DNA of 56,851 nt, counting the filler, from Dugesia japonica (taxonomy: Eukaryota), in the NCBI GenBank assembly GCA_001938525.1. It is 5 parts of 5 records of this genome, joined end to end, with 100 filler letters (N's around TTAATTAATTAA, not from the genome) between each part and the next. Parts side by side here need not be neighbours in the genome. Positions count along the whole stretch, not along the records: positions 14,801 to 26,699 come from MQRL01505792.1; 4 more parts are not named here. One strand, 5' to 3'. Each line of letters opens with the position of its first letter. Within the stretch, counting starts at the first letter, position 1. The position numbers were made by a program, and so were the translations under genes. This document shows positions 4,635 to 49,661 of this stretch, in pieces. The notes beneath the pieces are model-generated. The model ran no database searches. It saw only the letters and a list, made by a program, of their open reading frames with translations, and was not told the origin of the DNA.

Positions 4635-4822
4635 TATGAGGAAATAATTAGTAATTAATAATTTCACCCGATAGAAATTGAGTTATATAAATATTAGTAT
4701 TGAAATGCTTGTATTTCGATATTATTTATATTATGAATCTTGGTTCATAGCATAAATGATGTCTCAAAATATTAGTATTAGTGATTTGCAAAATGAATTA
4801 CCAATTGAAGTTATACCTAACA

Positions 4823-5800
4823 TGGTGGCAGTTTTAAATACTGATTCTAGTACAGAGATGTTTTTGCCGAATTTGTTCTGCAAAGGAGATGATATTGAGA
4901 AATTCATCAAGCAGTGTGAATGGTTTTTTGAAGCCAAAAACATCACCCATATGAACAACAGGAGAGATTAGTCTCGTGTTTGTTAGATGAAGATTTGTTT
5001 TTTAGAATATGCAATGACATTAAACAAAGTTGAAGGTTTTCAGGCTCGTTTCCGTATGGCATTTGAGAAAGAGAAAGATGTTATCATAGATTTTCAAAAT
5101 TTGATTAACTATTGGCGTGGAAATGAAGAGGTTCAAGTTTTATTTAAAAATGTAAAAGATTTAGTAAAAGATTATTTACAAATAAATATTTTACTGAGGA
5201 AAAAATGGTAGCAAAGATGCTAGTATTTTGTTCAGATAACAAAAAAGTTGAAGAAGAAGTAGCTTTGTGAAAACGAGAGAATATAGAAGAAATTGAAGAA
5301 ACGATGACGTTAGTAGATCGAGTAGAGAAAAACAGAGATCAAGTTGATGTAGTTAGAAGTTACGGGGAAGTTACACATCGAAATTATCAGAAACCGGTAA
5401 ATCATACCGTGAATAGACATGTGGAGCAAAGAAAGGAAAAACAAAATATCGAATGTTGGTCATGTCATAAGATCGGTCATACTAAAGCAAATTGTCCGAC
5501 AAAGAAGTGGTAAAATGCTGGAGTTGAGATTGGTTGTGGAAAGGTTGGCCATATTAAAAGGTTATGTCAAGAAGTCAGGTGTAAACAATGTCGTAATGGT
5601 GGACATAGAGCAGAAAAGTGCTAAGCAAATTTGAAAGCGAAAAGTCAAAAATTTATGACTGCAGAAAGATCAAGAAACCGATATAATCGAGTACATGAGA
5701 TTGAAGATGAAGATCTCAGTACAAACGATGGATATGAGGAAGCATATGAAAGTGATTCCGAAAGGCAGCATTCAGAAGGCAGGGCTCTACCAGTAGAGGA
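4823..5800 (+). pseudogene. gag: Gypsy gag pseudogene with zinc knuckles
   Basis: Fragmented ORFs 4756-5634 include CX2CX4HX4C motifs. Confidence 0.8.
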
Positions 5801-5992
5801 GTAGGTTGTAGCCATCCATAGTTAAATGAAGTTAGTAATTATCCTCAAGGGGTCGAAAAGTGGGATGATATAGGAAAAGTTACAGAAAAAGTATACAGGT
5901 TCTTAAAGAGGGAAAATTTTGCGGATGAAAGAAAAGTAGAATGGGTTGGAACAGTTGAAACAGGAAAGAAAACAAATATTTCATGTCATAAA

Positions 5993-7420
5993 TTGCAAGG
6001 AAGACCAATTGTTACGGTATCAATTCAAGGAAATAAAGTAGAATGTCTATTAGACACAGGGGCTCGAATTAACATGGTGAGTTTGAGTTGTTTTAATAAA
6101 TTACGAGAACTAAATTTAGAAATGAGTGATGAAAGATTGCGTTGTGCAAATAATTGTTCACTTGAAATTGTTGGGAAAGTTAAAACCGGAGGGATAATTG
6201 AGTACTTTTGCAAAGAGATTACTTTCTTAGTTCCTGAAAGAGTAAAACCAGATCTAATAGGAGGAATATATATGCAGAAGATTTTTGGATATCAGCTTAT
6301 GCGAAAGGTCGATAGCTAAACGGAGGAAAAAGTCGAAAATTACATTTGCAAAATTGAAGTGAAATTCGGAAGACAAATTAAAAAAGGAGAGCGATTGACA
6401 AGAGCCTTAAATATTTTGAAGATTAAAGAGGATCTACGGTTATTGAAAGTAATTGAAAGTTAAGAAGATTCTTTTATGGCACATAAATGGGATGTAGGAC
6501 GCACACATCGGACAAGACACAAAATAATCACAAATGGTGAACCAATCAATGTAAAACCGTATAGGCAACCAATAAGCCTAGTATCTAAAATTGAAGAAGC
6601 TATCCAAAACCTTTTCGAGAAAAATATTATCCGGAAATTTAACTCTCCTTGGAATACCCCACTGATCTGTGTTTTGAAAAAGGAAAAGAAAGACATAAGA
6701 ATATGTTTGGATTTTAGACAATTGAATGCAGTAACGAAAGGACAAGCGTTTCCTATGCCTAATGTCGATGAAATGCTAGACCAACTACTTCAGTTCAATA
6801 GATTTGGGAAATTCATACTAGCAGGTAAAGCTTGAAGAAGAATCTCAAGAAAAAACGGCGTTTTCAACAAAGCATGGACAATATTGTTTTAATAGAATGC
6901 TATTTGGCATCGCAGCGGCACCATGGACATTTCAAGAGATGATGACCAAAGTGGTAGGTGGAATCAATGGAGCCATAGTTTATCTTGATGATATTCTGAT
7001 ATTCCGAACAATAATGATCAACACTATGAAGTAATTGAAAGAGTATTGATGGAAATAATGAAGGATAGTCTAAGAATTAATCCAGAAAAGTGTCAGTTTC
7101 TTCAAAGTGAAATCAAGTTTCTTGTACACATAATTAGCAAGAATGGTGTTAGAACTGAAGCTATAAGAACATTTGGCAAACCTAACTGCGTGAAGAAGTT
7201 ACAAAGTTTCTTGGGAATTTGTAATTATCACAGGAATTTTATAGAAAACTACGCAAGAAAATCAAAGATATTAGAGCAGTTGTGCAGCTGACCAAGCAAC
7301 AAGAAATTAGAATGGACAGATGAAATAAACGATACTTTTGATGGTCTAAAGAAATCTCTAATGACTGCACCAATATTGTGTTTTCTGGACATAAACAAAT
7401 AATTTATATTAGATACGGAT
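5993..7420 (+). pseudogene. pol: Gypsy pol pseudogene (aspartic protease, RT, start of RNase H)
   Basis: ORFs 5993-6319 (LLDTGA), 6476-6835 (RT N-terminus) and 7046-7291 (KCQF, LQSFLGICNYHRNFI); YLDD at 6981. Confidence 0.9.
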
Positions 7421-7699
7421 TACTTCACCCAATAGATATTGAGATATCTAAATATTAATATTGAAATGCTTGTATTTTGATATTATTTATATTATGAAAC
7501 TTGGTTTGTAGTTGTAAAATAAATGATGTTTAATAATATTATGATTTGCATAATGAATTACCAATTGAAATTATACCTAACAATAAATATATTCCAAATT
7601 ATTCATAAATATATCACAAATTATTCACAATTATTCATAAATACATATCAAATTATTCACGAATATATAACAAAATATTCATAAATTGTTCATTTATGA

Positions 7700-8854: not shown

Positions 8855-11757
8855 TGTTGGGCTAGAACACATCTTGAAATAATACGAGAAACTGCAGGAG
8901 AGCAAGCAGAAAGTTAAGGGGAAATGGGTGCTGGACCAGATATTTTACTTTATATTATCATTATTATTATGTAATTATTATTCTTATTATTATTATACGA
9001 TTATTATTGAAACGAGAAAAAAGGAAAATTGGGCATAGAGGTCCCAAATTTGAAGATACAACAATGAAATTTGGATGTACGAGTAGGAAATAATAGACTG
9101 GATAATAAAAACAATATACACTGCTATAATAATATATTAAAAGGGCCTCTACGACCCATTATCGTTATTATAAATAACGCTAATAGCGTTTAATATTATT
9201 GAAAAATTAATTTATTCTGGTCCAGTCACGTTTATTTCTGGTTTTTCCAAGCGATGATTCAGTTGAAAAACCAGACGGTGAGACAAGGATATTACCCTGA
9301 TGACACGAATTTGGTTTGCCAAATTCGATGTCAATCATCGGCCGGAGAGAGAAATCCACACGACGACAAAAGTGTAACAAAATATTCACAATAAACAGGG
9401 ACCAACAACCAATAGGAGGTCGAGATTACAGAATAATCCCAAACGATTTGGTGAGCAATGAGAGCTCTTCAGTCTTCAGATCGGAGAAATGAATAAAATA
9501 TGAATTCCCGAGAATGAAAATCAGAAGTTTTTAAGTTAAAATTTTATGCACTTTCCGGAACCACTTAATGATCGCAAGGACTACACAGTAAATTTTAGTT
9601 ATTTTTTTTTACTCATTTTATTTGTAATCTTTGCTATTATATTAATAAAATAAAATCATCATCAAAGAGGGTGTCCGAGTGCCGTTCCTGTAAAGAGGTT
9701 AGGATGGAATCGGGTGGTGGATGAACGTAGAGTATTGGAGAGATTTTGGTTTTTTGTTGTGTTGAAGAATGAGAGCATAGAATCAGTTATCACAAATGAA
9801 AATTAGGTATTAACAGTTAGGAGGAGATGAATAGGACGTTTTTGAGTAAAATTGAGAAACGAGACTCTAAGAAATTCTAAAATTTTGAATCGCGATTTGG
9901 AATCAATTATGATCTCAATTATTTTTCTTTTGTTTGCATGATTAAGGATTAAAATATCTTCAGCACTGTGTAAAGTTGTGTACTCCCAGTAAAGGATTAA
10001 TTAAATCATTTAACCGTTAGTATTGTTTGTTATTAATTTTTATATGCATTTCGTTAACATTTTATAAGGGAAATGACGGAAACGAGAAAAGATGACTGTC
10101 TTCAGCAGGTATCTTCTCTGGTTCGCGTTATGAAATGGTGAGAAATAATGATAGGCCTCAGGCCGAAAAATAGGGTGAAATATTGTTTTAAAATAACTTG
10201 ACATTAATAAATTATATCATCATTATATTCATATTTAAATGTTTATGTTAATTGATTGATAATTGTTAGATGAGCAAATCTAGCAGGAACCTCAAGCGGC
10301 CTCGCTATATATGGCCATATATCGACTCCAGTGGGTACTATTACATCGAGTGGGCCGAGGTCCAATGTATGATTCGGGAAGAGAAGATAGCGCGCCTTGA
10401 AGAAACATACAGCTTACAGGCCGGTCTACAGGTGGCCAACTTGCGGGTCGCTCTCCTGGAAACCAATAATCAGCTGCTATCTTCCCTGTGAGATCGACTG
10501 CTGGCGGTCCTCGAGGAGACCGAGTCGACAGTTGCTGCCGGGGACGATCAACCGCCGAAGGTGGACCCAAACAGGGACGAGATTGACGAAGGAGAGTTGG
10601 ATTCGCAAGCCGAACAAGAAGAGTGAGAAATAATGAGGAGTTTGCTGGGCCTGCGCAGTGCTAGCACGGCCTCAGATGTAATTAAAAAATGAAAATTTTC
10701 TTAAGGAATTTAAGAATTTGATTTATTGATCTTTCTTTGTAATTATTTAAATGTTGTTGAGTTATAGCAAATAGGTGAAAGTGTGATACGTACACCACGA
10801 TAATCTGCAGAGGCAGGGTCGAATGAATTTCGTTAATTTTATTTTATTTCGTTTATTCTGAAGTGCATAGAATTGCCATAAATGCAAACATGGAAAATTA
10901 TCAAATTCGAAAAATTATAAAATGTATTCATTGAATGTTAGTTATTTCAGGAATGATATCAAAAATATTACAGAGGAATTGCGATTTTTAAGGATCACTT
11001 TGGGTGAATCGAACCTTTTTGCTAGAATTAAATATGTGTTGAATTATTTATTATTGGTTGGATTAAAGTATCTATTTTATTTCATTAAAAAGTTAAGCCT
11101 ATATCTTTTAAAATCAGGTTTTAGTCGTCAGTATTTTAATATTTATATATTTGACAATAGTTTCATTTGTTTTTGTTTTAAGACATTGATCTAAATGAAT
11201 TGTTAAATTAATTATTATTAAATTACTAAATTAATTTTGAAATAATAAAAAGATTCGTTCGCAATTGTATCTGTTAGCATTTAAATTTAACGGTGAAATC
11301 CGAGCATGGTGTACGGGAATATTGGAAAATGATGACAGCAATACTAAGAAAACTGATTTGACCAATGCAGGGATCAATTTTATTTTTTCATAGAAAGGAG
11401 ATTAGTAATAATTATAGTATTATTAACCGTCCTATTAAATGTTGAAATAGCTGAAATATCGTGTTAGTTTGTATAATGGTCAGATATGACCGATTTAAAT
11501 TTTTTATTGACAACGAATACTGAGCAAATGAGTGTGTTGGTAAATGGGGGTTCCTGAAAAAGAAACGTAAGACGCGATACCACAAAGTCGCGCTGAACCC
11601 GCGGAAAATTGGGGCATGTCACAGAGGTGACTAAATGCTTGTGGTTTTTAGGTATGCCCCTAGCCGAAGTATATTGGATTTATTTAGTTACGGAAATAAT
11701 CGAGTATGAAAAGTGCAGATATTAAACTCAAATATTCAAAATCCTAAAAACCCAACA
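8855..11757 (+). mobile_element. 2.9-kb TG..CA element (giant solo-LTR-like) with exon-like cargo
   Basis: Termini TGTTGGG...CCCAACA, 4-bp TSD AAAT, inserted inside a satellite unit; GC-richer exon-like blocks inside; no transposase or pol motifs seen. Confidence 0.75.
10270..10692 (+). pseudogene. Coiled-coil/acidic cargo ORF of the 2.9-kb element, about 140 codons with two in-frame TGA
   Basis: Preceded by a ttgttag acceptor; the frame continues past TGA at 10489 and 10624 (LLSSL*DRLLAVLEETESTVAAGDDQPPKVDPNRDEIDEGELDSQAEQEE*). Confidence 0.5.
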
Positions 11758-12056: not shown

Positions 12057-13575
12057 TGTGGGGCGCCATCTAGGTAGCTGAATTTTTATTTATGTCTGGG
12101 ATAATACACCTCGTGAAATCGCGCGAAGAATTTAATCTAACGACCCCGTTCTAGATTTTCGTAAAAGGGCCGCTGACTTGCAATCCATATAATGATTGCA
12201 TGCTTCTATTCTTTTGGTTCAGATCGTTTTTTCTGTGTCTCTTTAGCCTCCATACCGTTGTTATAGTGATTAATAAATGATTATCAAAAAGGTTTTATGT
12301 AAAAAATAAAATAGATTCAAATTTTATGATTCAATTGTTTCAAATTATTTATTTCTTAAATTTAGTACACTCAAGGTTTTTTATATTCTCGAATGGTTGG
12401 CAGTGAGATGTGTATTGAAGACTTGAGACTACTTCAGAACATTATCATTCTTGCCCATAAAAAAAATTATTTTCACCCATCAAAATTATTATTCTCGTCA
12501 AGAAAAAATATGAAATTTATAAATTTATTAAAATTAATTCCGAATATTTGATTTTCAAATATCTTTTGTGTGTTTAAAAATATCTTTAATTATTCATTGT
12601 TTAAATTCATACCTACGAGTATTTCATGTGTGGCTGCAATAGTGTGTCTTTTCTGTGGTATTGTATTAGGTGTTTTAATTAAAGTCCGCAGTTAATAATA
12701 AAGAGCGTTGTAAACAAAGCAATATATATAGCTGTCATAGTTTATTGAAAATCCAAACAAAAATCAAGTTTAACAGGTAATTTTAGTTTGGTCAATATGA
12801 AACTGAAAATCCTGTGTTTTCACATGTCCGTTACACAACTGTTTTAGGATTCTTGCTTTGTTGCTTGGTTNTTTTATAAACTTTCTGTAGTAATTACAAG
12901 TTTCTAAGAAACTTTGTAGCTTAAAACGTGATTGTTGCTTTCTTTTAAACTGATCAGTTCAAGCGCCATCTCTGCTAATTTATTGCCTAAAAATTTTGAT
13001 TTTCCCATTTGGAAATTGGCTTTTTTTTAGTTTTATATTTTTTCTTACAACATTCCAATATCCTTTTACTTTTTAAACATAATTCAATCAANNNNNNNNN
13101 NNNNNNNNNNNNNNNNNNNNNNNNNNNNNNNNNNNNNNNNNNNNNNNNNNNNNNNNNNNNNNNNNNNNNNNNNNNNNNNNNNNNNNNNNNNNNNNNNNNN
13201 NNNNNNNNNNNNNNNNNNNNNNNNNNNNNNNNNNNNNNNNNNNNNNNNNNNNNNNNNNNNNATCACAGTTGCACATATTTTACCTAGATTGACTTATTTA
13301 CTTTGTTTATCTATCTTATTTTATCAATGTTATTGCTTCATTTATATTTTCCACTGTTTTCAATTTATGCAGAATTACATTTTCTTTCAATTGTTTACTT
13401 TCTACGCAGCCTACTAATAATTTTACTGTAACTTCTCTCTAGTAAGCTCTTTATTTGAGAAAAAGTTTTAAAATAAGTTTTCTACCTTCTTAAAATGTCT
13501 CAACATTTTTGCCATTGTAATTTGCCATCTGTAATTTACTTAAATTTGGAAATCTTTCATAACATCCGTGGATTC
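12057..13575 (-). mobile_element. Second, heavily decayed Gypsy element related to the 4635-7582 family
   Basis: Minus-strand translation gives gag-like DVMKDFQI*VNYR..FKKVENL..KLLVGCVESKQLKENVIL, which aligns with the gag at 5070-5320, and RT-thumb KLQSFLETCNYYRKFI at about 12870-12920; TG terminus at 12057 abuts the satellite. Confidence 0.6.
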
Positions 13576-14700: not shown

Positions 14701-14800
14701 NNNNNNNNNNNNNNNNNNNNNNNNNNNNNNNNNNNNNNNNNNNNTTAATTAATTAANNNNNNNNNNNNNNNNNNNNNNNNNNNNNNNNNNNNNNNNNNNN
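14701..14800. other. Artificial scaffold-joining linker (44N+TTAATTAATTAA+44N)
   Basis: Exactly 100 bp, stop codons in all frames, identical at four sites. Confidence 0.95.
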
Positions 14801-15383: not shown

Positions 15384-17118
15384 GTTTATGGAGTATGTGA
15401 TTGTCTGCACAATACTGAAGGACAACACTGTGAAAAATGCAAAGACTTTTATAATGACAGTCCATGGTTGCCTGCTGATAAAAATTCTACAAACGAGTGT
15501 CGAAGTAAAGCCTTTTAATTTATTTTTTGCAACAAAGCTTTTGTTACAATTGTTTACTAGTTAAATGCAGCATTAAAAAATCAATGAAGAAATTTTATTT
15601 TACATTTTCTTTTTCTACCTACCTGGCTGGTTGACCTTTCCCAGGACTTATAAACATTGACTTATCCATGATCTACAAACATTTAATGATTTGTCAAAAT
15701 CATTTTATTTTGGTACGGATCTTCATCCACCAGTGCCTCCAGCTTTTGGTTTCGTTTGTCCTGGACGCTCTTTATCTTCCACCGAAAATCATCCTTTCTG
15801 AAGTGTTCAAACCATCATTTGCAAGTTGCTTTTGGTTGAGCATTGTCACCATGATCCTCCAATAGTGTTTTGTGAATTTCTGCAGGAGATTTTTAATCAA
15901 TTTTAAATAATTAAAGGTTTATATAAAATGATAGTGACATTTGTAAAAATTAAGATATTTTCATTAAAATAATCAAATATTTATATACAACCATTAAATA
16001 AAATATTTCTTTACTTACCTTTATTATAAAATCTAAATCTTTTTAAAAATTATAAAATCCAAATAATCAAATAGAAATCACAGANTTCTAAATAAAAAGT
16101 GTCATAAGTATAAAATAAATAGTCAGATTAATCTAGATGTCAGTAGAATGAATTAATAGAATATTGATTATAAAAATAGATGTACAATAGAAAAGATCGA
16201 ATAATTGAATATATTGATCACTTCGAATAATTGAAAAAATCGATCACTTTTGAGAAGTTATCTTTGATTTTGTTGAACAGCTTGTTTTGTACATGTTTTG
16301 AGTTTGTTCACTATGTTATTATTTTCACCAACATAATACTATAACAACTTAAATATTGTTACAACCGATGCTGCAGTTATATTTAATTAATCATCAACTT
16401 AAAATTAAAACATCTCCAAAGTAAAACTCTGAAGAAGTCTATGGTCGAAATTTCGGATTGCTAACAAGAACTTTAATAAAACATTTAATTTAAGATTTTC
16501 AATTTATTGAAACTTTTTTTAAATACAACTAATAATTAAGTCTAACAAATATTCTAGCAATAAGTTTAATTGTAAAAAAATGTTTTAATGTTATTTTATA
16601 ATAATAAATAACATTATAAAATGTAACAGTCGAAAAAATAACCTTATAAAGAAAAAATTAAAAACAAAGATAAATTCGAAATAGTATGAAAAACAAAAAA
16701 ATAATTGATGGAAGTTAAAATTCAATGAAAATTATCTTGATTAGATATTTTTGACAATTGAAATTATAAATTTATTTTTCAAAAAGATTAAATTCAATTT
16801 CAATGTAATTTTTATTCATGATATTAAATTTTTCTTCCAAATCGAACGAAAACTAAGTTATATATTAAATATATTTCATTAAATTCTTGTCATCATTATA
16901 TTTCTTCTAAACATAATTTAATTTGGTTAAATATACTCAATACAAATAATAAAGAAATTAAATAAAATATGTATTTTTAATTTTATTTTCTAAAATTTGT
17001 ATTTTGTTTCTAATTAAATCAATAAAGCCGAGGTTATTAATGAATGAAACACGAATTTCATGAGAATCTTACTTTGATTTGAAAATAACGAGTATAGAAA
17101 AGATTATATGGTTTATTA

Positions 17119-17277: not shown

Positions 17278-18086
17278 ATTATTATTATTATTATTATTAT
17301 TGTTAGTAATATTATTTTTTTTTTGACTATACGTCATAATTGAAATATTTTCTGTATTGGGCTTTATCCTCGAAAAAGTGGTTTTAAACCGCAAGTTGAT
17401 TCTTAGACACAGATCAAAAACTCAAGTCCTCACACGGTCCCACATGTGAATAAGTTCCAATCACAAATGCTAAGTAAAATAAAATTTAACTGTCACCACC
17501 TTTCCCTTTGGCTGATCATTGGTATCACTGTATCATCCTTTTCAACAATGACCTTTTTAAAATCAAATATCAACCTTAGTTCTGTTCTTGAAGCTTTAGA
17601 CAAAATCAAATATTTGACACCGGATAACTGGCTCTTTAGTCAGATTCCAATATTCCACATTCGCTACTATCAGTGGGTTTTACTGTGAATGCTCTGGTCA
17701 GGTGGTAGAGTTAAATCTATACAAGATACTATTTTGAAATATAAAATATTTTACACTTAATTTTATTTAAGAGGTTCAAGAAAAAATAAATAATTTACTT
17801 GTTAAAAGATTTTATATTAATTGAGTGAAATTTATATTTAGAATGCAATTGCAATAATCATGCCTTTAGTTGTCACTTTGATCCTGCTGTTTATAAACAA
17901 TCTAACCTAAAAAGTGGTGGAGTGTGTACTGATTGTCAGCATAATACCGAAAGTACAAATTGTGAAAGATGTAAAATCGGATATTATCGAAATTTCCTGG
18001 TATCAATAACTTCACCAGAAACATGTTTAAGTAACAAAATTTGTTTTTTCTTATTTTTATTTTTAATCAAATTAATAATAATAATA

Positions 18087-21200: not shown

Positions 21201-24200
21201 TGGTCAATTTTAATCTTAAATCCCCTCGAAATTCCACATTTAATTTATTTCTATACTTAATTACATTCAAAAACTTTACATACGCGATTAGGTAAATGTG
21301 ATTTGCATATTAAAAACGGTTTTTCCTTTGACCCCAATCGACCCTCTAGATCATTTCGACCTCCAATAGTGTTAAATCGACCTCCAGCTGTTTATGTCAA
21401 CCATTATGGCGTCCTATGGCTTAGACTGTTATGAAAATTAATTTGAATATAAAATATTTATTGTTTTATTTATTTATTGTTTTACTTTTTAAAGTAAAAA
21501 GTAATTAGTGATTTTTTTGAAATTATAATAATAAATTTCTTGAGAAACGTTCATAAGTTATAATTGTTTGATTGCAGAGATAATTTTTAAGAGTAATGAA
21601 TTAGGTTTCAACTATTATAGTAGATATTTTTCGAACAATTAATGTTGTCTTATAATGATAGCAATTTTTGTAAATAATATTTGCTTAAAGTGTAGTGATG
21701 ATTTTGGTCTACTCTTTGAATTATAATGATTGTTACAATTAATTCAAATTTAAAATAACAGCTTCGATCAAAATTTTTGTTTTTTTTATTGAAATCTGAT
21801 AACAATTCGATATTTCGACCTTGCCTTTGTTAGGAATTGACTTTTACGAAGGCAAAGTCGAAATATCGAATTGTTATCAAATTTCAATAAAAAAAACAAA
21901 AGTTTTGATCGAAGCTTTTATTTGAAACGAATTCTATAAAATGATCAATGGTTATGTCCAACAATTATTCTCGGAATAATTGCAATTGTAAAATAATTTA
22001 AATTTGTTTAAATTTGTTGTCTTTGTAGAAGAAAAAATTTTTTAAATTTGAATTTTCAATTAGATTCATTTGTAAATTGCCACATTTGCGTCACGAGCGA
22101 ATCAATTCGATATCTAATTAAAAAAATTGGAACTAGAAGTTGAAGAAAATAAGCGTCAAGAAGAACGAAANGATAGAATACGACAAGAAGAAAGAGAAGA
22201 TAAAAGAAGATGAGAAGAACTCAATGCCCCAGCAACTTATCAAAGAATAATGGATTGTCTACTTAAAAGTATTCCTAATACTGCTGATTTTTCAGATGAT
22301 TTTATAGTCTATTCACATACGATCCAAGAGCCTATTGAAACTTTGGAAAATGTACTAAAAAAATTATTGGCAATCGGTCTTACAGTTAATCCTATAAAGA
22401 GTAAGCTTATGATTATTAGAACCGAGTTTTTAGTCAAGATGATTGGGAATAGAGAGATTTTCCCGAAGTTTCAATAATACAAGATCTTCCCCACCATAAG
22501 AAAGGTGTTCGCCAGACTATGGGAATGATGAATTATTATAGGGCTCATATCAATAATGTAGCTCTCTTTGTTTCGCCATTAGCAGATCTTCTAAACAAGA
22601 AGATGTGTGACAAAGTATAGGGAATTCAGAATGTGAAGAGAGCTTCAAAAATTTAAAAAAAGATGCTGACAATAACACCTATATTAAGAGCGGTAGACCA
22701 TACTAAAATATTTTATGTTCAGACAGATGCCTTGGACAAGGAAGTTGAAGAAGTTTTATACAAAAAATTCGATGATATTGCTTTTTGATCAAAGAAGTTA
22801 ACTGGGTCTCATCAGAGATGGTCAACAATAGGAAAAGAACTATACACAATTGTTTGCGCAATCTCATTATTACTTATATGGTCGCCAATTTATCCTGCTA
22901 TCCGATCGAAAATACGAATAAAATCAAGAGAAACAAAATTGCTAGATGGAACCTACTTTTGCAGGAATACCAGTTTCAAGTACACTACAAAAGAGAATTG
23001 ATAATCAAAACAGTGATTTTCTGAACCGCCTGTGGGAAGATGCCGAGAAGGAAGAGGATGAATGTGACAATTAATTAAAATTTGTTTAAAATTGTTGTCT
23101 TTGTAGTAGAATAAATTTTTTTAATTATATTAATTTATACAATTATATTTTTGAAAAAAATTATTTAATCAAATAAATATTGTTTTAATGTAAGAGTAAA
23201 ATCGACAAATAAATACAGTTTAAATTGCAATTATTATTTATTGAAACCTATTGGCCATCATTATGTGGTGGCGTACCACTTTTAAGTAAATGTTTTAAAA
23301 CTAATCCTGTTGCATACCATATTGGATAAGACAATGGAATTTTAAAAAACAATAAAAATACATTATTTAAAATAAAATTAAAGTTTTAAAAAAAGGTTTT
23401 ATTAATAAACGTTATAGTAAATTATATAACATTTAAATAATCAAAGAAAAATGGTAATTTTTTTGTATCCGAAGATGACAGTTATGCTGTCGAAACATGT
23501 TATAAAAAATATGTATTTAAATGGCATTTCAAAATTTTTAGAAAACATAAAAAATTTAAAATTATTTCTAAAAAAAAGAAAAAATTGCAAATTTTCTTCA
23601 AAATTGAAAGTAGAAATGTAAATTTAAATTTAAGATAGTTAATAAACTGTAGTCGGTCAATTTTCGTAGTTTCATATTTACGTAATTAGTTAAATTCAAT
23701 GCGTCTCAAAATAAATCATCTATTTCTTTAAAATGCCCCAAGTAAAATAAATCCATTTTATGATCGTAAATGTTAAAAAAATAACTTATTATTTTAAGGG
23801 TGGCTTACAATTATAATACTAATAAATGATAATTGTTTAGATTTCTATTTTAAATATTCGGAAATTTAGTTCAAAATTCAATTAAAAATTCCAACTTATA
23901 AAATCCTTTAAATGATTGTAATATTTTCTCTATATATCAAAATTAAAATGCTAGAAAACCTTCACGGACAGAACCATAGTGGTTTTAAGAATAACTAATC
24001 ATCCTAGGAGAAAATTCAAATTCACACTAGGCGTGAACATTCAACAGGTAAAAATCTCNNNNNNNNNNNNNNNNNNNNNNNNNNNNNNNNNNNNNNNNNN
24101 NNNNNNNNNNNNNNNNNNNATCTAGAAATTAGAACACAACATTAATCAAATTTATAGTTGAATGTCTTTGGTAAAACTATTATAAAATTTACTCAAAGAA

Positions 24201-24746
24201 ATAAATTGGAATGTAAATTATAAAAATATCGGAAAAAATATTTTAAATATTAAATGTGAAGATTTGTTAGTAAATCTTTTACATTATGAATAAATTAAAT
24301 GCTTATTATGTATTTAACTAAATAATTAATTATATAATCAATTAAGTAATGAAATTAATTTGCTACAATAACTAATTTATTATGTTAATGTTAGTTAATT
24401 ATTTATATTTTAGAATGTCAGTGTGATTCATTAGGGACGAAATTTCCTAATAATTGTATACAGGAAAATGAAACTGATCGAAATATAATAGCTGGACAAT
24501 GTATGTGNAAAGAAAATGTTGAAGGAAACAATTGTGATCGATGTAAAGTGGGTTATTGGAAATTTAATGGAAATGAAGAAACAGGCTGTATAAGTAATTT
24601 TTCATTCAAAAAAAATTTTTTCTAATAAAATATTAGAATGTAACTGTGTTATGATGGGAACTATTGAAAATCAAGGTTGTGATCATCTTTCTGGGAAATG
24701 CTATTGTAAAGAGTTTGTTACTGAAAGTGATTGTTCCGCCTGCAAG
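15384..24746 (+). CDS. LAMB1: Laminin beta chain, internal LE (laminin EGF-like) exons: 15384-15504, 17842-18030, 24414-24593, 24637-24746 (partial gene)
   Basis: GT-AG exons splice in frame: VYGVCDCLHNTEGQHCEKCKDFYNDSPWLPA..KCNCNNHAFSCHFDPAVY..SGGVCTDCQHNT..AGQCMCKENVEG..CDRCKVGYW..CNC..GT...CDHLSGKCYCK, typical of laminin beta LE1-4; the paralogue assignment is approximate. Confidence 0.88.
15615..15890 (-). mobile_element. Mariner transposase N-terminal (HTH) remnant in laminin intron
   Basis: PAEIHKTLLEDHGDNA...CK*WFEHFRKDDF/VEDKERPG..LEALVDEDPYQ, similar to Mos1-type HTH domains. Confidence 0.75.
17120..17300. repeat. (ATT)n microsatellite
   Basis: Direct; contains an N gap. Confidence 0.95.
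18075..18257. repeat. (ATT)n microsatellite
   Basis: Direct; contains an N gap. Confidence 0.95.
20306..20493. mobile_element. hAT (Charlie-type) MITE
   Basis: TIRs CAGTGGTTCTTAACC / GGTTAAGAATCACTG; 8-bp TSD AGTTATTT/ATTTATTT with 1 mismatch. Confidence 0.8.
21752..21923. repeat. About 170-bp inverted repeat (foldback) from a dispersed repeat family
   Basis: agcttcgatcaaaa...ttcgatatttcgac.ttgcc / ggcaaagtcgaaatatcgaa...ttttgatcgaagct; related single-arm sequence near 1210-1290, 27195-27270 and 38000-38090. Confidence 0.85.
21987..23230 (+). mobile_element. Internally deleted Gypsy-type LTR element (RT-RNase H remnant, possibly Gmr1-like)
   Basis: LTR-like direct repeats (aaatttgtttaaa.ttgttgtctttgtag) at about 22001 and 23078; RT NAPATYQRIMD and FSDDFIVYS; RNase H FYVQTDA and ARWNLLLQEYQFQVHYK; purine tract followed by TGTGACA at 23062. 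Confidence 0.8.
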
Positions 24747-24784: not shown

Positions 24785-26699
24785 TGTTGGGGTTCCACCT
24801 GAGTTGATGCTAAAAACATATGGCTGGGGGAAAAGACATCCATCAGTGGACCCCTCGAAGAATTTAACCCAAGGTCCCTGATTAAGGCCTTCTGAATGAA
24901 GCAGTTGACTCCCAACGCATACTTGGAGTACGTGTTCTCACTCCTTTAGTTCGGGTTCATAGTTTCCCCTAATTTATGGTAGATTAAAGACAAAGACAAC
25001 TCATGTATAACGAAAAGTTTAGTTATAAGTTATCAAAAGCCCCTGGAGGGAACCATTCAGCAGGCGCGTCGTCCGAAAAATCGAACGCGGCCTCATCATT
25101 ATGATCATTCCAATTTGTTCGCATTTCCAATTCTGCTGCGAAATCTGCCTCCCACCTTCTTTTAGATAACCGGTATAAATCCTAGGTCATCTAAAGCTCT
25201 TTGCTCTCTTCCCTCATTTTTTTTACTGGGAGCAACAGATGGTTTGTGAGATGAAGTCACTAATAAGTTATGAATAAAAAATGATAGTTCAGAATTAAAA
25301 TATTCATTGAAAATAAGGCTGACAGCCACGACTATTAAACAATTAAATTGACAAAATTTCCTCAAAATGAAAAGTTAATTAATTGTGACAAGAATTTATT
25401 ATAGCGAAAAACGTAAACTATTAGCTAGAGGCCGAAAATAGTCCTCTAAATGCGACAAGGTTGGTGATGAAGGAAGAGAGATGTTCTGGTCACCTTTCTG
25501 TCTTTCAGTAAGCCAACGACGGTGCGCCAGGCGCTCTACGGAATCAGATGTTTGAGTTCGGCTGCTACCGCGAGGGACACGTTGGACCGCTTCGCTAGAA
25601 TACCGTCCAAGCAGTTGTAAGAGTTCCGTTGGCTTTGGAATATCACATGGTTAGTACTCTCGTCCAAAATCAGACGTCATCGGTATTCGCTCACTGCAAT
25701 TAAATAAATGAAATTAGTACGTTAAAAATTTTACAAAATTGGAGAAACGAATAAATTGACACCAAAAGGTTAACGAATTATATTTAAAACGCCAAAACAA
25801 CAATTACAAAATAAAGAATGAAATTTTACTTGTGTAATAATTCGTAAATTTAGCAATGGCAATAACATCTGGAGTAAGTGGTTTTTTCTTTACTTCATGG
25901 TACAGTTCATTCTATAACAATCCACGAAATTTATTTTAATAACTAAACTGGTTTTAACTAACTTGTAAAATTTGTCTTCTTTGACACTGACTTATAAGAG
26001 TTTTTAATTTGAAAAGTTTTTGGTCTTGTGTTTTACCAAAAATCTGAGGGGTTTTATATCATTCCTGACGCACTCTATTTTTAGTTTTACTTCAAACTTC
26101 TTTATTGGCCCTTAGTCTGATTTTTCTCTATTTTTCTTTGTCTTTCATTGGTGCCTAATTTTAGAAACCTTCTGACTTTCTTTGCTTTGTTTTTGTATCT
26201 TTTTTTCTGCCTTGTGATTGGTCTAAATTTTAAAGCCTTTTTAGTAACCCTTCTGAAAGTGATATCATTTTTTACTTTAGGAAATCAGTTCCCCAAATTA
26301 TTAAGTTCTTGATTTTTCTTTCCCCGACATCTTCCGATTTTCTTGAGGGAAGTTATTCCCTTTTTTCAAACTTTCTTCATAATTAATTTTCTTTTCTTGG
26401 GATAATTAATTAATTTTCCCTTATTATTTTCAATTATATTTTTCCAATATTTTTAAATAATTTGATTATATTTATACTTCTTTCTTAATGGTAGTTGCCT
26501 TTCTGCTAACTTTGTAAATGTCTTTTATCACTTTCTTGTTGTTTTCTGTATTTATTTTAATTTCTCCTTATTTCCTAATAGATTATTTCTTTTTTCTTCT
26601 GAAATTATATTTGTTAATAATTGCAGACTGACCATTTTTCGAGGGTCTACAAGTAATATTCCCTTACTTTGATGACGATTTCAGGCCCCGGTTTATTTA
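24785..26699 (-). mobile_element. Third TG..CA cargo element (family of 40494-43889), reverse orientation, truncated by scaffold end
   Basis: TGTTGGGGTTCCACCTGAGTTGA..AAGAATTTAACC matches the reverse complement of the 43800-43889 end (TGTTAGGGTTCCACTTGAGTTGA..AAGAATTTAACC); inserted in an ATT run 38 nt after a laminin exon. Confidence 0.75.
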
Positions 26700-26799
26700 N
26701 NNNNNNNNNNNNNNNNNNNNNNNNNNNNNNNNNNNNNNNNNNNTTAATTAATTAANNNNNNNNNNNNNNNNNNNNNNNNNNNNNNNNNNNNNNNNNNNN
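26700..26799. other. Artificial scaffold-joining linker
   Basis: 44N+TTAATTAATTAA+44N. Confidence 0.95.
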
Positions 26800-39499: not shown

Positions 39500-42400
39500 A
39501 CATCTTTTTTTCATACAACCATACATCAATGTACATTTCAATGTACAATGTTGATATTTTTACCACAATAAGCCATTTTGTTGCTGTAAACCATTGTTGA
39601 CAACGAATTCTGTAGTACTCAATTTGTTTTGACATTTTCAGTGGATTTGTGAACAACATTGATGGATAATAATATCCAAAAAAACTGAATACTAATATCT
39701 TTGATGGTTTATTGTAAACAGTTATCTAATGTTCTTCAATGAGATTTGATGTGTGAGTATCAACGATTAAAGCTTTACTAACAGGAATATATGCTGATCC
39801 AAGCCACTTTGATCCGATCTGATTGATCTTAATAGAATTAATTATATAAAAGTCAATAATATAATAACACTTACTTCATAATATGTATCGATCAAGCACG
39901 ATTTTGTTTAAACTAATACGGTTCTGTTGGCATTGATTTGAATTTCATTTTTGAATACTCCATAAAAAATCATTTTTTTGAATTTTCTAACCTTAATCCG
40001 TTATATGCCAGATTTTTTCCGCTTTTTTGTGATGTGTTCTTTTTTACTGAAAAATAGGTTTCGTAAAATTTTTATACGAAAAAACACTATACCTATAAAA
40101 AGTAAGTTTTTTATAAATGTTCCCAAATATGGATTGAAAGTTTTTGCTAACCTTTCCAAACTTTATATCCACTTTCAAATTTCCTTGTCAATTAATTTTG
40201 ATTTATATTTGGAGCAAGCACAAATGTAAAGAATGAATATTTGGTTTTGAATTCAAGAGTTATTCCACAATTCATATTCTTATCCTAATATCTCATATTT
40301 CTAACCACATATTGCATATATATTGTGCCCTAATTATTAATGTAAAAATTCTAAGTATATGTCTTCTGATAATCAATGATTTTAGATAAAAACATGGAAG
40401 TAACATTTAAATGTTGAAATGTTGAACTAGAGTAGTTATATGTCAGTTATAAATTGATATATAAACTTTGTTTAAATATTATCAGTTTTTAATTGTTGGG
40501 GTGAAACACACAAACTAAAGAGGAGGCAAAGCGGCCATAAATTATAAAGTACTGAAAAGAAGGAAAGAATCATAAATGTAGATGACAATACATCAAGATG
40601 ATTAAAATAAGAAGAAGAACAAGACCAAGTGGGAAAGTAATTAGTGGACGAATAAATAGGAATACCGACAGAAACGAACCTGGATAATCAAAGCCAGTAC
40701 CCGTCCTTAGTACCAATAAAAGAAAATTATAAATTATTATTGCAAGAAGAAAGAAAATTATTAACAAAAATACTTAATTACAAAAAAATATTAATTAATT
40801 AGGTTTAAAAATAAACGAAAATTAAACAAAAAATTCGTTTTTTCACTACTGGTGAGTGAGTATCAGCATACAGAAATAAACTTGAATCTAAGCAACGCAT
40901 AACCGCCCGAATTCAAATCGGCTAAATTCTCATAAGTTATCGCTGTTACTAACTTTAAGAATCATCATTATAAATATTATATTTACTATTATTATTACTA
41001 TGATTATGATTATCTTTATTATTTTAATTATTAACAGTATAATTATTACTATGACTACAATCATTATTATCATTATCAATATTATTATTATTGTTAATAT
41101 TACCTTTATTATCGATCATAGTCACCATAATAATTATTATGATTAGTATTATTATTGCGATTATTATGTTAATCGACGTATTGTTAATATGACTATTATT
41201 GCTAAACTTGTTATAATGTTTGATAATTTCAGTATTATCCCTGAATTTTTATTGTTACGGCATTTTGTATCGCTATTAGAAGGGTGATCTCCGTCACCTC
41301 TAGAAAATCTATGCTTCTCCACGAATCTGACCTTGATCCAGGGTTCTCACTCCCATGGTGCCTACTAACTATAGTTCCATTGCTAATTTTCGTCATCAAC
41401 AGGAGGTTGATTACTATCTTCACTATTTCACTCATTATTCAAATAATTTTTTTTATTAGCGATATCTTTGGGGTTCTCATATTAAGGTTACTCCGTCTAA
41501 TATTATTAACATCCATTAACTTTCATGCTTTATGTTATAAATGCTATCATAACAAAGTTGGATAACCTACTATCCAACCCAATAAGGAATACATTCCCAT
41601 ATCCATGTTAAATTCATTTAACATAATGCGGACAGCACTGGGAAGTACCCTGCGTTGGATCAAGAAACAACGTAAACACTCCCGATTAAGGCAGTATTTG
41701 GCCCAAGTACTATCACGTGGAATAGTGGAGCATCCCGACGAGACAGATTTAGCTTGTTTCGTTAAAATGTTTCCCCTGCTGAATATCTTGGATTTAGATG
41801 TACAAGAAGAGTCCCACTAAGAAATACTAGCGCGTAAAGACTCGTGGGAATAAATTATTGATTTTTTTAGGGTCATCTAATTAATATTAAGAGTGTAGTG
41901 AATTAAATAAATTATTGTAATTTTATTTATTTTTTTTATAGAATGGAATCCATATGGGAAAGAATTATTGATTGTCGAACAAGACGCATCATTTTCAGAC
42001 GACACCATAACCCGTATAACCGAGATGCCGGAATATTGGTAGATCGCTTAAATTTGCCTCCCGTAAAAGCCGCAGTAGCGTGAGTACGAAATTTTGGCGA
42101 AAAACTTAATTTCCAACACTGGAATGGACCAGTACGCAATCACACTACTGCATTCCAGTATCAACCTCCGGCCCACCCCCAGTCGTGCAGGCCTTCATCA
42201 ATAACTTGCTCTGGGGCGTTAGGGAACCCTCTGGCGTGGAGGATGCCGAAAACACAGCTCCTACCACGGACCCTACGACTAATCCGCAGCGACTCCTTTG
42301 TTTTATGGCTTGAATGTAGAAATAAATACGTGTCTTTACTTAATAATATTTTGCTTCGTTGCCTTCAGGGTTTTAATAAAAAAAAATTTTTGATGTTGTC

Positions 42401-44600
42401 ATAAGTATATTTTGCTGCCGTAAAATTGGAAAGGGTTTCAGGGAATTCCGTCATTTAGTTGATAGAATCTTTAGTAAACATTTAATATTTTGTAGTGCAT
42501 TCCTCTCTGAACCGTCATTCAGCTCCTACTAAGAAGATAAGAGACACCAGTGAGGACCAAGAAATCACTTGGGACCTCTATCGCCTGGCAAAGCGACGCT
42601 GGGAGGCCTAGATGGCAACCACCAAAAGTAAGGTGAGCCGGTATGAAAAGAAATGCCTGGCATTCAAGGCGGAAGCTGAAGCTTCACAAAAACAGGAAAG
42701 AGTCTGGAAGGCTCAATTAGAATCTTAATTAAAATAAAATAATTATTAAAATCGTAAACTACTAAAAATAACTATTTATTTTAAAATAAAAACTTTACCG
42801 AATGTTCACAATTTAAAATCAATGATAATTCTTTGTCAAATATAAAATCCTTTCTTAATAACAAAAATTTCCAACAAATAATTCCGTCATCGGAATAGTT
42901 AACTTTTCATTAATTATTTTCAGGTTTTTATCACAGCATTAAATTTTAATTTTTTTTACGACCAAATCGCCTCAAACAGGAAAGAGTCTGGAAGGCTCAA
43001 TTAGAATCTTTCACTGAGATTATCCGGTCCTATCAAGACCGAGAGAATAAACTGGTTCAAAATATTCACAAACTAAAATCTGCAATGCCTCTCGAGCCAT
43101 TTATGGTCGACAAGGGTACCCAGATTCCAAGAGCTTAATAATTGTCATTGTATAAATAAAGGTTTCTATGTTAAAATTTATTTTAATTCTATTAATTTTG
43201 CTTAGTTAATTGGCCTATCTATCGCCGATTGAATAAACTAATGTTATATCTTTTTAAGTGCCGCGAATCACTTTCCCAAACAGCTTAAGAAGATGCCACC
43301 GAATTATGCGACGTCTCTTGGTCGAGTGAAAACTTAAGCGAAAGACTGACCGAGCACTTCTGAAACACCTTAATTAGAAAGATCAGTTAATAAGAAGGCT
43401 TCAATTGATAGTCAAACGACAGAGCAGCCTGGCCGAACAAACTAAGGCTCTCGCACAAGAAACACAGTTACTGTTGCAGCGCAAAATTGAATTTTTGAAA
43501 CAGTATATTGCCGATCTCTCCCGTCAACTAGGAAACCCTACATGGGTCCAATGGGACGATAATGACGATTCGGCGTCGTTAACTTTTTTGACGACCGATC
43601 CAGCCCAGTGGTTAGACCCGGCCCACTGGATCTCATGTAATTTTTTTTTGTAAAATACAGTTTTCATTATTCGACTTATTCCAATCTTTAATAGATTCAT
43701 GGCAATAGGGAAAATAGCGAACCCAAATGCAAAGGCCTATGAGCGCGCACATCCCATTAAGCGAGAGGTCAACCACCATATGCCGAATACCTAACTTAGG
43801 GGCGTTAGGTTAAATTCTTGAAAGGGTTCCATAAGGGCTGTTTTTACCCAGCCACGTTTTCTTCGCTCAACTCAAGTGGAACCCTAACATAATTATCATT
43901 TGAATTTTAATAAATAAACTTTATGGAAGAATCTTGTGTCCTTACTAGAGTTTTTATAATCACCTTTACATTGATCTTCATTTGGAAATGTTACCAACAG
44001 AAAGCTAGCAAACGACGATCAACAAAGACTTTTTACTTATAAAACGATGCACTATTTTTACTAATTACAAACCCGACAAGCTCCTTGGTTTGCATCGGAT
44101 AAACAGCATTGTATTTACTTAATCCTATTTGATCACCAGCCAATACTGAAAGTTGAACAAGTGCACATCAAACCATTAATTTTGCATCCATCAATTGATA
44201 TTATGGTTCATCATTTGCTGATTCAAAACCACAAATTATGGTATGCTCTTTTCATTCGAATATGGACATATAATTTAATATTTACTTCGACTATTGATTT
44301 CAACGATGCTCCTGAATTCTCGTATAGAGATGATTGATAGTTTTTACAATATATATCGCATTACATCCATTGCATTCATTTTTATAAACAACATTAGAAC
44401 ATAATTTTTATGGTATTTTAGACTCATTTGTTAACATATTGATAATTTTAAAATACTGTAAAACAATTTTAAAACTCAATGTTTCTGTACTTTACTAACC
44501 CACTTTTAAATCCTCCAGAATACAGAATTGTTTCAGAATCATATAAAGTCAATTCGCATAAATAAAAGTATTAAATATACAATCTAATCAAGATGGACTT
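39500..44600 (-). mobile_element. Possible highly decayed EnSpm/CACTA-like transposase, split by the 40494-43889 insertion
   Basis: Fragment VLAGDQIGL...ACRVC near 44060-44150 resembles the GDNLG..CRxC motif; otherwise very degraded. Confidence 0.3.
40494..43889 (+). mobile_element. 3.4-kb TG..CA element (giant solo-LTR-like) with multiple exon-like cargo ORFs
   Basis: Termini TGTTGGGG...ACCCTAACA, 4-bp TSD TAAT; GC-richer blocks at about 41580-41850, 41942-42310, 42496-43138 and 43260-43640 separated by AT-rich spacers, two ending in clear AG acceptors. Confidence 0.8.
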
Positions 44601-45335
44601 TCCCAAATAAAAATTAATAAGTAAGAGGTTTATTCTAATTATCATAAAAATCAGCTGTATTTTGAAAAACTTAAAAATATCAACAAACTATATGGTTGCG
44701 AATTATTATAAATTAACAATAAAACATCTAATCTACTGTAATAGAAAAACGAAAGGTGAATGTTGCAAAAGTTGTTCAGCAGGATATAAAATTAGCAAAT
44801 TTTATAACAATTTTATCAATATTACAATTTTGATTTTAGAGGATAAATTATTAATAAATCAAATTGAAAATGGTAGATTATCATAAATTTATACAATTTA
44901 TGAGTTTAAAGTAACTTTGAAATCTTTATTAAAATTTTAAAATCGTATTTCAGTCCCGGACTTCAATAGAACTATAAAAACTTAATAATGTTCTTAATGT
45001 TAGATAAAATTTATTGAGATTTATTCATATTATCTAATGAAAAAAACATAATATGTTTATCAAACAAAACATAACTTATATATAATTTTTAGAACATTTA
45101 AATAGCTTTACAGAATAAATTCAAATCTTTGTCATTTACCTCCACAATTTTTAATATACAAATTATAATGAATTAAATGGCAAATATTTGAATTGTGTAA
45201 TGCATTTTGAAAATACAATTTCTTAAAATACTATTATAAATTTAAATTTAATAATTAAGTTGAAATTAATTTAATTACATTTTAAGTATTTAATAAAAGC
45301 TGTTTTTAGTATTTTTAAATCTTATAATATGATTA

Positions 45336-45687: not shown

Positions 45688-45787
45688 NNNNNNNNNNNNN
45701 NNNNNNNNNNNNNNNNNNNNNNNNNNNNNNNTTAATTAATTAANNNNNNNNNNNNNNNNNNNNNNNNNNNNNNNNNNNNNNNNNNNN
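45688..45787. other. Artificial scaffold-joining linker
   Basis: 44N+TTAATTAATTAA+44N. Confidence 0.95.
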
Positions 45788-45824
45788 ATATAAATTTTAA
45801 CATATAAATTTTAATATATAAATT

Positions 45825-46181
45825 TTAACATGTTTTATTTTTCATAATTTCTTTTCTCATAATTTCTTCTAATTCTTCATCTGTGTATTTAATTTTATAA
45901 TTACTTTTTTTTTCTCTCTCAATTTCATATTCAATTGCTTTTTGTCTTAATTTATCTCTTTTAATTTTTTTCGTCCGTTCTGACATTATAAATCTATAAT
46001 AATCGGTTCCTTTTTTAAATGGAACACTTTTTTCCTTTATGGATCTTTCTTGTTCCTCACGTGTTTTATTTAACCATTCCCATGCTAAAATTTCATTTTT
46101 CTTTATTATTTCTAATTTATTAACATCTTCATTGTTATGTTTCTTATAATAAGCTTCACAATAATCGATATAATCTGTCAT
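45825..46181 (-). CDS. Hypothetical charged helical protein (118 aa) of the viral element
   Basis: Intact ORF, same strand and codon style as its neighbours; no motif recognised. Confidence 0.7.
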   Translation of the reverse strand: MTDYIDYCEAYYKKHNNEDVNKLEIIKKNEILAWEWLNKTREEQERSIKEKSVPFKKGTDYYRFIMSERTKKIKRDKLRQKAIEYEIEREKKSNYKIKYTDEELEEIMRKEIMKNKTC

Positions 46182-46316
46182 GTCCGAAGGTTAGCTACGC
46201 TTTTTTAAGATATAAATTTTAATCATAACATATACAAATTTTAACATGTCGCATTCTAACATATCAAATGTCAACATATTAACATTTAACATATCAATGG
46301 TCGCATGTAACAAGTT

Positions 46317-46931
46317 TCAGATTCCAAGTTTCATCTTCATTTCAGAAATAACTTTATTTTGATTTTCAAGTAATAATTTTAAATCAATATCCTTAGATTT
46401 CTTATGTCCACTGATCAATTCATGAACATCTGAAACCATTTTCTTAGAAATACTTAATTCTTCATCTGTTAAAATTTCATCATTAACTGCTTTCTGTTGA
46501 AATAAGAATAGTTTATTTTTAACACATTCAAGTTTAGTTATTAATTTTGAATATCTTTCTTTTCGAGATTTAACAAATGAAGTGTTCATTGTTCCAATTA
46601 CAGGCAAAACTGAAATGGCTCCCGTAATAATCGGGATTCCAATTCCAGTAAGTAAAAGACCAACTGGAGTAATAAATATTATCCCGGCTATTCCAATTCC
46701 TGCACTTAATAATATCTGTGTATATTTAATTCCAGAATCAATTCTATTCCATTTCTTTTCTAATTTCTTATAATGTTTAANTTTATCTTTAATATAGTAA
46801 AGATCATTTTCAAAATCTTTAATTCTAGATAATGACAATTTATTTTTTAAATCTTGAATTGTATAACTATCATCTCGAAGACTAGGATAAATATTTATAT
46901 TGTCAGGTTCTTCCCTTGTGGATCTTTCCAT
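46317..46931 (-). CDS. Conserved Polinton-type coiled-coil/transmembrane protein (204 aa)
   Basis: IYPSL..LSRIKD..KKW.R + Gly-rich hydrophobic hairpin (ILLSAGIGIAGIIFITPVGLLLTGIGIPIITGAISVL) + KAVNDEILTDEEL, matching a Polinton family I recall with a KALxDxxISxEEF end. Confidence 0.8.
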   Translation of the reverse strand: MERSTREEPDNINIYPSLRDDSYTIQDLKNKLSLSRIKDFENDLYYIKDKXKHYKKLEKKWNRIDSGIKYTQILLSAGIGIAGIIFITPVGLLLTGIGIPIITGAISVLPVIGTMNTSFVKSRKERYSKLITKLECVKNKLFLFQQKAVNDEILTDEELSISKKMVSDVHELISGHKKSKDIDLKLLLENQNKVISEMKMKLGI

Positions 46932-47085
46932 TTCTTAACTATAAAATTTAACATTTTAATTCTAGATAATGACAATTTATTTTTTAAATCTTGAATTGTA
47001 TAACTATCATCTCTTAAACTAGGATAAATATTGTCAGGTTCCATTTCTTAACTATAAAATTTAACATTTAACATTTAACATTCTC

Positions 47086-48855: not shown

Positions 48856-48858
48856 TTT

Positions 48859-49326: not shown

Positions 49327-49380
49327 TTATTAAATAACAGTTTTAAGTAATAACATGTTATGTCTTTATGGTTTTGGTTT

Positions 49381-49661
49381 TTTAAAATCTAAATGTAGAA
49401 TGTTAACATGTTAAAATCTAAATGTAGAATGTTAACTTGTTAAAATCTATATATTAACTTGTTAAAATCTAAATATTAACTTGTTAAAATCTAAATGTAG
49501 AATGTTAAAATCTAAATGTAGAATGTTAACTTGTTAAAATCTAAATATTAAAATCTATATATTAACTTGTTAAAATCTAAATGTAGAATGTTAAAATCTA
49601 AATGTAGAATGTTAACTTGTTAAAATCTAAATATTAAAATCTAAATATTAAAATCTATATA
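49381..49661. repeat. Intergenic tandem array (TTAAAATCTAAATGTAGAATG / TTAACTTG modules)
   Basis: Direct; lies between protease and penton. Confidence 0.9.

Follow-up and report, generated by a model that had tools for sequence, protein, structure and literature searches.

Analysis of the window, i.e. the entire 56,851-nucleotide stretch of Dugesia japonica DNA under study, showed that two diverged repeat units, designated here as elements A and B, carry homologous copies of a gene that has been under purifying selection between families, retains a conserved acceptor, lies within a defined insertion unit and is decayed in both copies. The best explanation of a short protein motif common to A and B is that it represents the conserved N-terminal part of a protein which would be encoded by a gene of at least three exons, amounting to roughly 350 codons in B. 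We consider it probable, at about two chances in three, that A and B are solo long terminal repeats (LTRs) of long-diverged Ty3/gypsy-like families residing in laminin introns, and that the LTR holds this intron-bearing accessory gene. The window consists of AT-rich animal DNA, mostly with 17-38% GC per kilobase and interrupted by assembly gaps, and contains exons of a host laminin-like gene, the introns of which harbour a decayed gypsy fragment and several repeats. In the features listed below, the exon ends of the B gene model are approximate and its donors are candidates only.

15384-15515, 17829-18050, 24395-24746 and about 44740-44790, plus strand: cysteine-rich exons of the host laminin-like gene (laminin EGF match, E 4e-8 for one of them)
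24785..26699, minus strand: element A, an LTR-like unit with its right end, CCCCAACA, at 24785 and its left end lost in the gap 26700-26799
25560..25693, minus strand: A exon 1 core (motif), with an acceptor before 25693, a stop at 25677-25679 and a frame without a start codon
25405..25545, minus strand: A exon 1 continuation in a different frame that resembles residues 50-92 of the outside homologue P0002 (score 41, best of three frames)
25044..25259, minus strand: A exon 2 start, conserved helical block and acidic-aromatic tail, with two stops and one frame change
24785..25112, minus strand: A end region conserved with B in DNA (blastn 63.7% over 347 columns, E 3.5e-22)
40494..43889, plus strand: element B, a complete 3396-bp unit of a multi-copy family, TGTTGGGG...CCCTAACA, with 8/9 terminal bases inverted
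40490..40493, plus strand: left 4-bp target-site duplication of B, TAAT, adjoining B at the empty-site joint
43890..43893, plus strand: right target-site duplication of B, TAAT, adjoining B
41605..41820, plus strand: GC-richer frame of 71 codons in B, a possible upstream exon with a donor-like site at 41834, no match in A and no family match in Pfam or PHROGs
41942..42315 (end approximate), plus strand: B exon 1, including the motif at 41943-42083 (tblastn match to P0002 over 41943-42170)
42496..43115 (end approximate), plus strand: B exon 2, with the conserved helical block at 42525-42608 and a stop at 42609
43259..43636 (end approximate), plus strand: B exon 3, helix-rich with stops at 43327 and 43375 and with an acidic-aromatic tail, of which 43552-43620 matches A
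43552..43889, plus strand: B end region conserved with A and with a third unit, D (blastn), the highest-copy part of the unit in DNA run X1 barring a microsatellite

The sequence-only reading had placed one peptide on the minus strand of A and another on the plus strand of B at 41943-42083, and both were found to be present. The span it gave for A, 25561-25690, was correct in location and one base off, the aligned frame running from 25691 down to 25560. Its 15/37 ungapped identities between A and B were reproduced when the count is confined to the span between the outermost identities, equivalent to 15/39 codons downstream of the A stop, and the in-frame stop of A was located at 25677-25679, as had been reported. 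In B, the motif peptide corresponds to a 46-codon ATG-to-stop frame. Both motifs are preceded by AG acceptors, again as described previously, with T-rich, low-GC DNA upstream and exon starts at 25693 (A) and 41942 (B), and the register of the exon-1 acceptors differs by one base between the two elements. The proposal that the motif has the same orientation within A and B was verified by three more collinear coding blocks and a common end.

The motif alignment was shown to have a local score of 59, which was reached in 0/20,000 shuffles (shuffle maximum of 42), while the best unrelated segment from the six frames of the whole window scored 38. The remaining five frames at the motif displayed 3-10 identities with far lower scores. 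Nucleotide identity between A and B by codon position was 23, 25 and 9 of 39, and different codons specify 11 of the 15 identical residues, with a pS of 0.87 and a pN of 0.40. Neutral simulation at the same nucleotide identity produced 15 or more identical residues in 15/20,000 trials.

Comparison of A and B using tblastx revealed five collinear blocks (sum E of 1.8e-16 with an element-only database and 3.2e-5 against the whole window), the collinear sequence comprising the motif, a block with 17/28 identical residues, an acidic-aromatic block with 9/23 identical residues and the common end. The pooled coding blocks (100 codons) exhibited nucleotide identities of 63, 70 and 29 at the three codon positions (Fisher p 1e-9 versus the end), although selecting the blocks by protein similarity in itself favours such a bias; given this choice, the neutral simulation, the collinearity and the outside homologue provide independent support for coding. 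The shared end, in contrast, looks non-coding, as its identity is flat across codon positions (31, 33 and 34 of 63), and the A end region was shown to lack a coding signature in its last ~250 bases. In both elements, the coding blocks form GC-richer islands behind T-rich AG acceptors. The exon-2 likeness begins at the acceptor, in equal phase in A and B, with 6/13 residues matching before the frame change of A, and the second block of A runs into the tail after 11 codons, the middle part of B being absent. The introns of the A/B gene are presumed to be spliced. The unrecognised gene family postulated by the sequence-only reading is real, and the past purifying selection ascribed to it is borne out by the codon-position bias, the pS and pN values and the preservation of motif and frame in P0002. 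The motif is not a small stand-alone gene, and most probably opens a longer gene with three or more exons.

The left parts of A (26000-26600, minus strand) and B (40500-40830, plus strand) display an excess of A and of purines on the gene strand and have an 81-base block in common (72%), and that of A contains a 60-codon, very basic frame. Both left parts possibly represent more decayed coding sequence.

Interrogation of 1.84 billion representative proteins using phmmer returned two matches, P0001 and P0002. The former, a fish protein with immunoglobulin repeats, lacks a matched stretch and was discarded as a repeat artefact. P0002 is an unnamed protein of 94 aa from a single 512-bp contig, and was shown by tblastn to align with B without gaps (E 6e-13 over 76 codons), continuing past the B stop at 42081, and with A at E 0.009. 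Across 39 motif columns, P0002 shares 19/39 identities with B and 13/39 with A, 10 columns being invariant in all three sequences. Its second half matches the other frame of A (11/3000 shuffles) and, weakly, the other frame of B (74/3000). Further copies had been expected to conserve the motif and its frame, and P0002 keeps both. Word-indexed searches retrieved no homologue with the B peptide among candidates of 25-81 aa, P0002 alone among 22 candidates of 25-165 aa with the three-sequence alignment, and 0/1 candidate of 115-368 aa with the exon-2 block. Locus scans of metagenomes (0/247 and 0/99 candidate stretches) and of viral contigs (0/48 and 0/46) yielded no match, and ESM Atlas returned no usable match for P0002 or the B peptide. 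Judged from these comparisons, the A/B protein constitutes a new family.

Since P0002 reads through the B stop, the 46-codon frame of B is a truncated remnant and both copies in the window are pseudogenes; the notion of this frame as an intact product was consequently abandoned. Exon 1 of B carries a premature stop at 42081-42083 and a frame change near 42150-42170, while exon 2 is broken by a 284-bp segment (42727-43010) flanked by a 37-bp direct repeat. The B unit was shown to be multi-copy in DNA run X1, with 30-53 contigs at the single exon positions listed and a summed depth in the thousands. At least two of the B breaks are not common to all copies, as observed among the 40 differences listed of 358: the stop at 43375 is absent from nearly all other copies at that position (33 contigs, depth 2708/2717), and a one-base length difference near the exon-1 frame change was present in 10 contigs. 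The 284-bp segment is nearly private to this copy, with a summed contig depth of 25.5 in bin 42830-42953 versus thousands in the flanking exon bins.

The TG...CA ends, the 4-bp target duplication and the presence of empty sites in public DNA demonstrate that B is one inserted 3.4-kb unit. In total, 14 contigs of run X1 join 40489 to 43890, and this joint skips exactly 3400 bases, i.e. the 3396-bp unit and one copy of the duplication. A different repeat surrounds the insertion point of B (40350-40490 and 43890-43980), which probably accounts for the recovery of empty-site contigs. Element A possesses a right end of the same type as B, the check for TG...CA-type termini being limited to that end, and terminates 38 bases inside an intron of the laminin-like gene, in an AAT run. 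A further unit was recognised by its end, which scored 171 versus a shuffle maximum of 137-141:

12057..12220, minus strand: element D, a third unit, truncated or more diverged, with only the conserved end in common (blastn 62-64% over 87-136 columns)

As expected of a solo LTR from a Ty3/gypsy element, B combines TG...CA ends, a short imperfect inverted repeat, a 4-bp duplication (4-6 bp being usual), an empty site and an interspersed multi-copy distribution. B is therefore most likely a solo LTR, its LTR identity being deduced from the ends and the target duplication, and this is the best reading because the short inverted ends and 4-bp duplication are of the kind that an integrase would leave, the terminal inverted match is shorter than that of Ginger transposons and a transposase is absent. 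Paired repeats of this kind around gag-pol were not seen in the window, and neither a primer-binding site nor a polypurine tract was found adjacent to A or B. The LTR-like character previously attributed to the carrier is upheld by its ends and duplication; the gene, however, does not lie as cargo between the two LTRs of a giant element and was instead found to fill a single 3.4-kb unit with LTR-type ends. Because the conserved ends fold no better than shuffles (z -0.77 and +0.22), a ribozyme or other RNA with strong structure was dismissed, and Rfam analysis of the window gave three sub-threshold matches, none of which is located in A or B.

A solo LTR in which the gene runs antisense to the genomic RNA, comparable to the antisense additional ORFs found in gypsy elements of plants and fungi, is partly nested in the preferred explanation and is, as a distinct reading, unlikely. 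Such an arrangement would let introns survive reverse transcription without an export factor, and LTR retrotransposons frequently carry antisense additional ORFs (PMC7264820, part of the text). The near-symmetrical ends suit either orientation. AATAAA, sought as the poly(A) signal of a U3-R-U5 layout, was not found on the gene strand in the last 600 bases, near the right end, of A or B, and the RNA runs showed no transcript ends. Conversely, the gene strand is purine-rich in the left parts (0.66 in A and 0.65 in B), and the gag-pol fragment of the window has a similar purine excess on its sense strand (0.61), a composition that hints at a gene in sense orientation to the element.

It is distinctly unlikely that the 3.4-kb unit is a whole non-autonomous element, integrase-mobilised and Ginger-like or unclassified, with the spliced gene as its sole payload. 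Introns would be easier to keep in a DNA element, an internal region was not seen, and a poly(A) signal is lacking near the right end. Ginger DNA transposons are described, in the available portion of PMC2836005, as elements of 2.6-7 kb with TGTNR ends, a 4-bp duplication and introns, and B resembles them in its TGTTG terminus and TAAT duplication. By the same partial account, B differs from Ginger elements in its terminal inverted match, which comprises 7-9 bases rather than 40-270 bp, and in the absence of an integrase-like DDE transposase, no remnant of which was detected by Pfam analysis of the exon pieces. In addition, an unrelated-looking unit has the same type of ends and a duplication, as would be expected of solo LTRs from different families:

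8855-11757, plus strand: unit C, a complete 2.9-kb element with TGTTGGG...CCCAACA ends and the 4-bp duplication AAAT, inside a 22-bp satellite

The possibility that the exons derive from a recently captured host gene which is passively carried, with selection having acted on the host gene, appears very improbable. The acceptors are canonical and of host type, and a lineage-specific host gene could be absent from the libraries; however, no named homologue was found among the 1.84 billion representatives, and the synonymous saturation (pS 0.64-1.26), together with the still homologous ends and left-hand block, argues that gene and element diverged together. That the A/B match arose by chance or follows from the conservation of non-coding DNA, as might be supposed from the short peptides and the stops in both copies, is refuted by the shuffles and the low scores of the other five frames, by the tblastn match to P0002 as an independent homologue and by a codon-position pattern in which third positions are less conserved than the non-coding end.

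The absence of a recognisable function, which the sequence-only reading had pointed out, was corroborated by profile, PHROG, PDB and fold searches, in which no gag, env or known host domain was matched. Pfam analysis of the exon pieces revealed no family above the cut-off, 0/5 proteins matched PHROGs, the best E value among PDB sequences was 0.35, and Foldseek gave no match at E 0.001 for the N-terminal model against PDB or the exon-2 model against a viral library. The AlphaFold model of exon 2, obtained from two sequences, consists of two long helices (pLDDT 83), while the N-terminal model, a hairpin and two helices, is unreliable (pLDDT 50). 'Helix-rich' is a safer description than 'coiled coil', as heptad periodicity was significant in only 1/6 segments (2/500 shuffles) and not in exon 3 (196/500). 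The maximum 19-residue hydropathy was 0.04-0.69 in the exon pieces tested and 0.24 in P0002, and the resulting lack of a membrane segment sets the product apart from env and sORF2-like fusogens. The product thus looks soluble, and is predicted to begin with a small beta/alpha module, to continue through a long helical stretch and to end in an acidic-aromatic tail. A WW domain has three strands and a second conserved Trp; the likeness to this domain noted by eye gained no support, as no WW match was obtained in Pfam at E values up to 5 or among PDB sequences, and the low-confidence model has two strands.

RNA depth across 41838-42085 of B was zero in 3/3 runs (~25%, 25% and 6% of the respective runs read, at 85% likeness). 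The reads that were placed on B (1105, 233 and 139 per run) were nearly all partial and located mostly on an AAT microsatellite, and no splice joints on B were present among the joints listed. The B family is accordingly silent or very lowly expressed in the three sampled RNA runs. This silence is compatible with expression elsewhere, given that piRNAs repress this class of transposon in planarians (partial text of PMC8532177).

Under the preferred explanation, one Ty3/gypsy-like lineage would have split into two families, of which A and B would be remnants in introns of the laminin gene. LTRs are usually treated as non-coding control regions, and a selected intron-bearing gene inside them would explain why the end-repeats of this element are unusually long. 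Selection would have kept the multi-exon gene intact in the past, both copies in the window decaying later. A regulator protein made from the spliced RNA of the element would either activate the LTR or, like CERV or Rev, export unspliced, intron-retaining genomic RNA from the nucleus. Tails rich in acidic and aromatic residues are a mark of activation domains, and a regulator role is suggested by the soluble helical protein, its acidic-aromatic tail, the spliced RNA and the need for introns in the genomic RNA. We tentatively favour such an element regulator, acting in LTR activation or unspliced-RNA export, at less than even odds. An anti-silencing role seems rather unlikely, as does some other role, while manipulation of host cell fate would be quite unlikely.

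Mouse mammary tumour virus encodes the sag product, a superantigen of the membrane, in a single frame. Like the A/B gene, the sag ORF is a protein-coding frame within a retroelement LTR, in this case that of mouse mammary tumour virus (PMC2118998, portion available). The A/B product displays no sequence likeness to sag, and differs in lacking a membrane segment, in its several predicted introns within the repeat and in its invertebrate-type gypsy context. CERV is produced from a spliced RNA of the Caenorhabditis elegans LTR retrotransposon Cer1 as a novel accessory protein, and serves as the model for the proposed export of unspliced RNA (PMC10309623, partial text), the A/B gene being likened to it by description and its function being presumptive.

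Burro elements are giant planarian gypsy elements with accessory ORFs and extra domains (PMC6431247; PMC13465017, both in part), and like the proposed source elements of A and B they represent giant gypsy elements with accessory ORFs in an AT-rich animal genome (PMC6431247, in part). In the portions of these accounts available, however, the BIR, BCL2-like, MATH and env domains of Burro lie in an internal polyprotein or upstream ORF rather than in the LTR, and none matches A or B (PMC6431247; PMC13465017). The additional ORFs of the plant and fungal elements Retand, Grande, Boty and Retrosat2 (ORF0) are orphan, fast-evolving and selected across families (PMC7264820; PMC3485330, partial texts), and Retrosat2, the LTRs of which exceed 3.2 kb, is also represented by many solo LTRs (PMC3485330, partial text). 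According to the same excerpts, these ORFs lie in the internal region, whereas the A/B gene is located in a repeat-like unit with introns (PMC7264820; PMC3485330). The sORF2 fusogen-like proteins are encoded by a small accessory gene of MDG1-group gypsy elements, which, as described in part of the preprint, is unspliced and has a transmembrane segment, the A/B product having none (bioRxiv 10.1101/2025.03.14.642691).

No intron-bearing gene inside a gypsy LTR was encountered in the literature searched, which comprised mainly titles and abstracts, with the original Burro papers, supplements and Repbase outside its scope; the A/B repeat may already be catalogued in Repbase. Precedents exist in principle both for genes in LTRs and for orphan accessory ORFs, and both copies here are dead. 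An intron-bearing LTR gene poses the puzzle of intron survival in reverse-transcribed sequence, and presents a candidate element-encoded regulator that is testable in an organism for which public RNA data are plentiful. It is doubtful, though conceivable, that a gypsy lineage exists in which the LTR is a multi-exon cassette, such that each LTR, including thousands of solo LTRs, would be a possible source of a trans-acting regulator of RNA export or anti-silencing and families would carry different LTR genes, or alternatively that a new class of small gene-carrying elements is moved in trans.

Several other features were observed in the window. Unit C has an acceptor-to-donor exon of its own (10270-10677), consisting of 136 codons with two stops, helix-rich and with an acidic end, which matched no Pfam family and does not clearly resemble the A/B gene; units C and E have no coding block in common with A or B above background. 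A decayed compact gypsy gag-pol fragment (4817-7420, plus strand), identified by an aspartic protease Pfam match and without LTRs, starts with the primer-binding-site-like TGGTGGCAG directly after CCTAACA, which resembles the end of B; the fragment lies in a host repeat that continues at 7408-7580. A Polinton/adintovirus-like cluster (45800-56650, minus strand) fills the right end of the window and comprises a 1274-codon frame with N-terminal C2H2 fingers that is polymerase-like by eye, an adenovirus-type protease match (E 0.006) and several unmatched ORFs separated by short tandem repeats. Two GC-richer frames of 105 and 139 codons at 33336-34089 (minus strand), without a Pfam match, are possibly exons of another gene or element. 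The gaps at 14701-14800, 26700-26799, 36081-36180 and 45688-45787 each consist of 44 N, the linker TTAATTAATTAA and 44 N, a filling that generates false repeats in the window. A near-perfect 82-bp inverted repeat with a 15-base spacer at 21749-21927 belongs to a small repeat, probably a MITE, that also occurs near 1200, 27200 and 38000.
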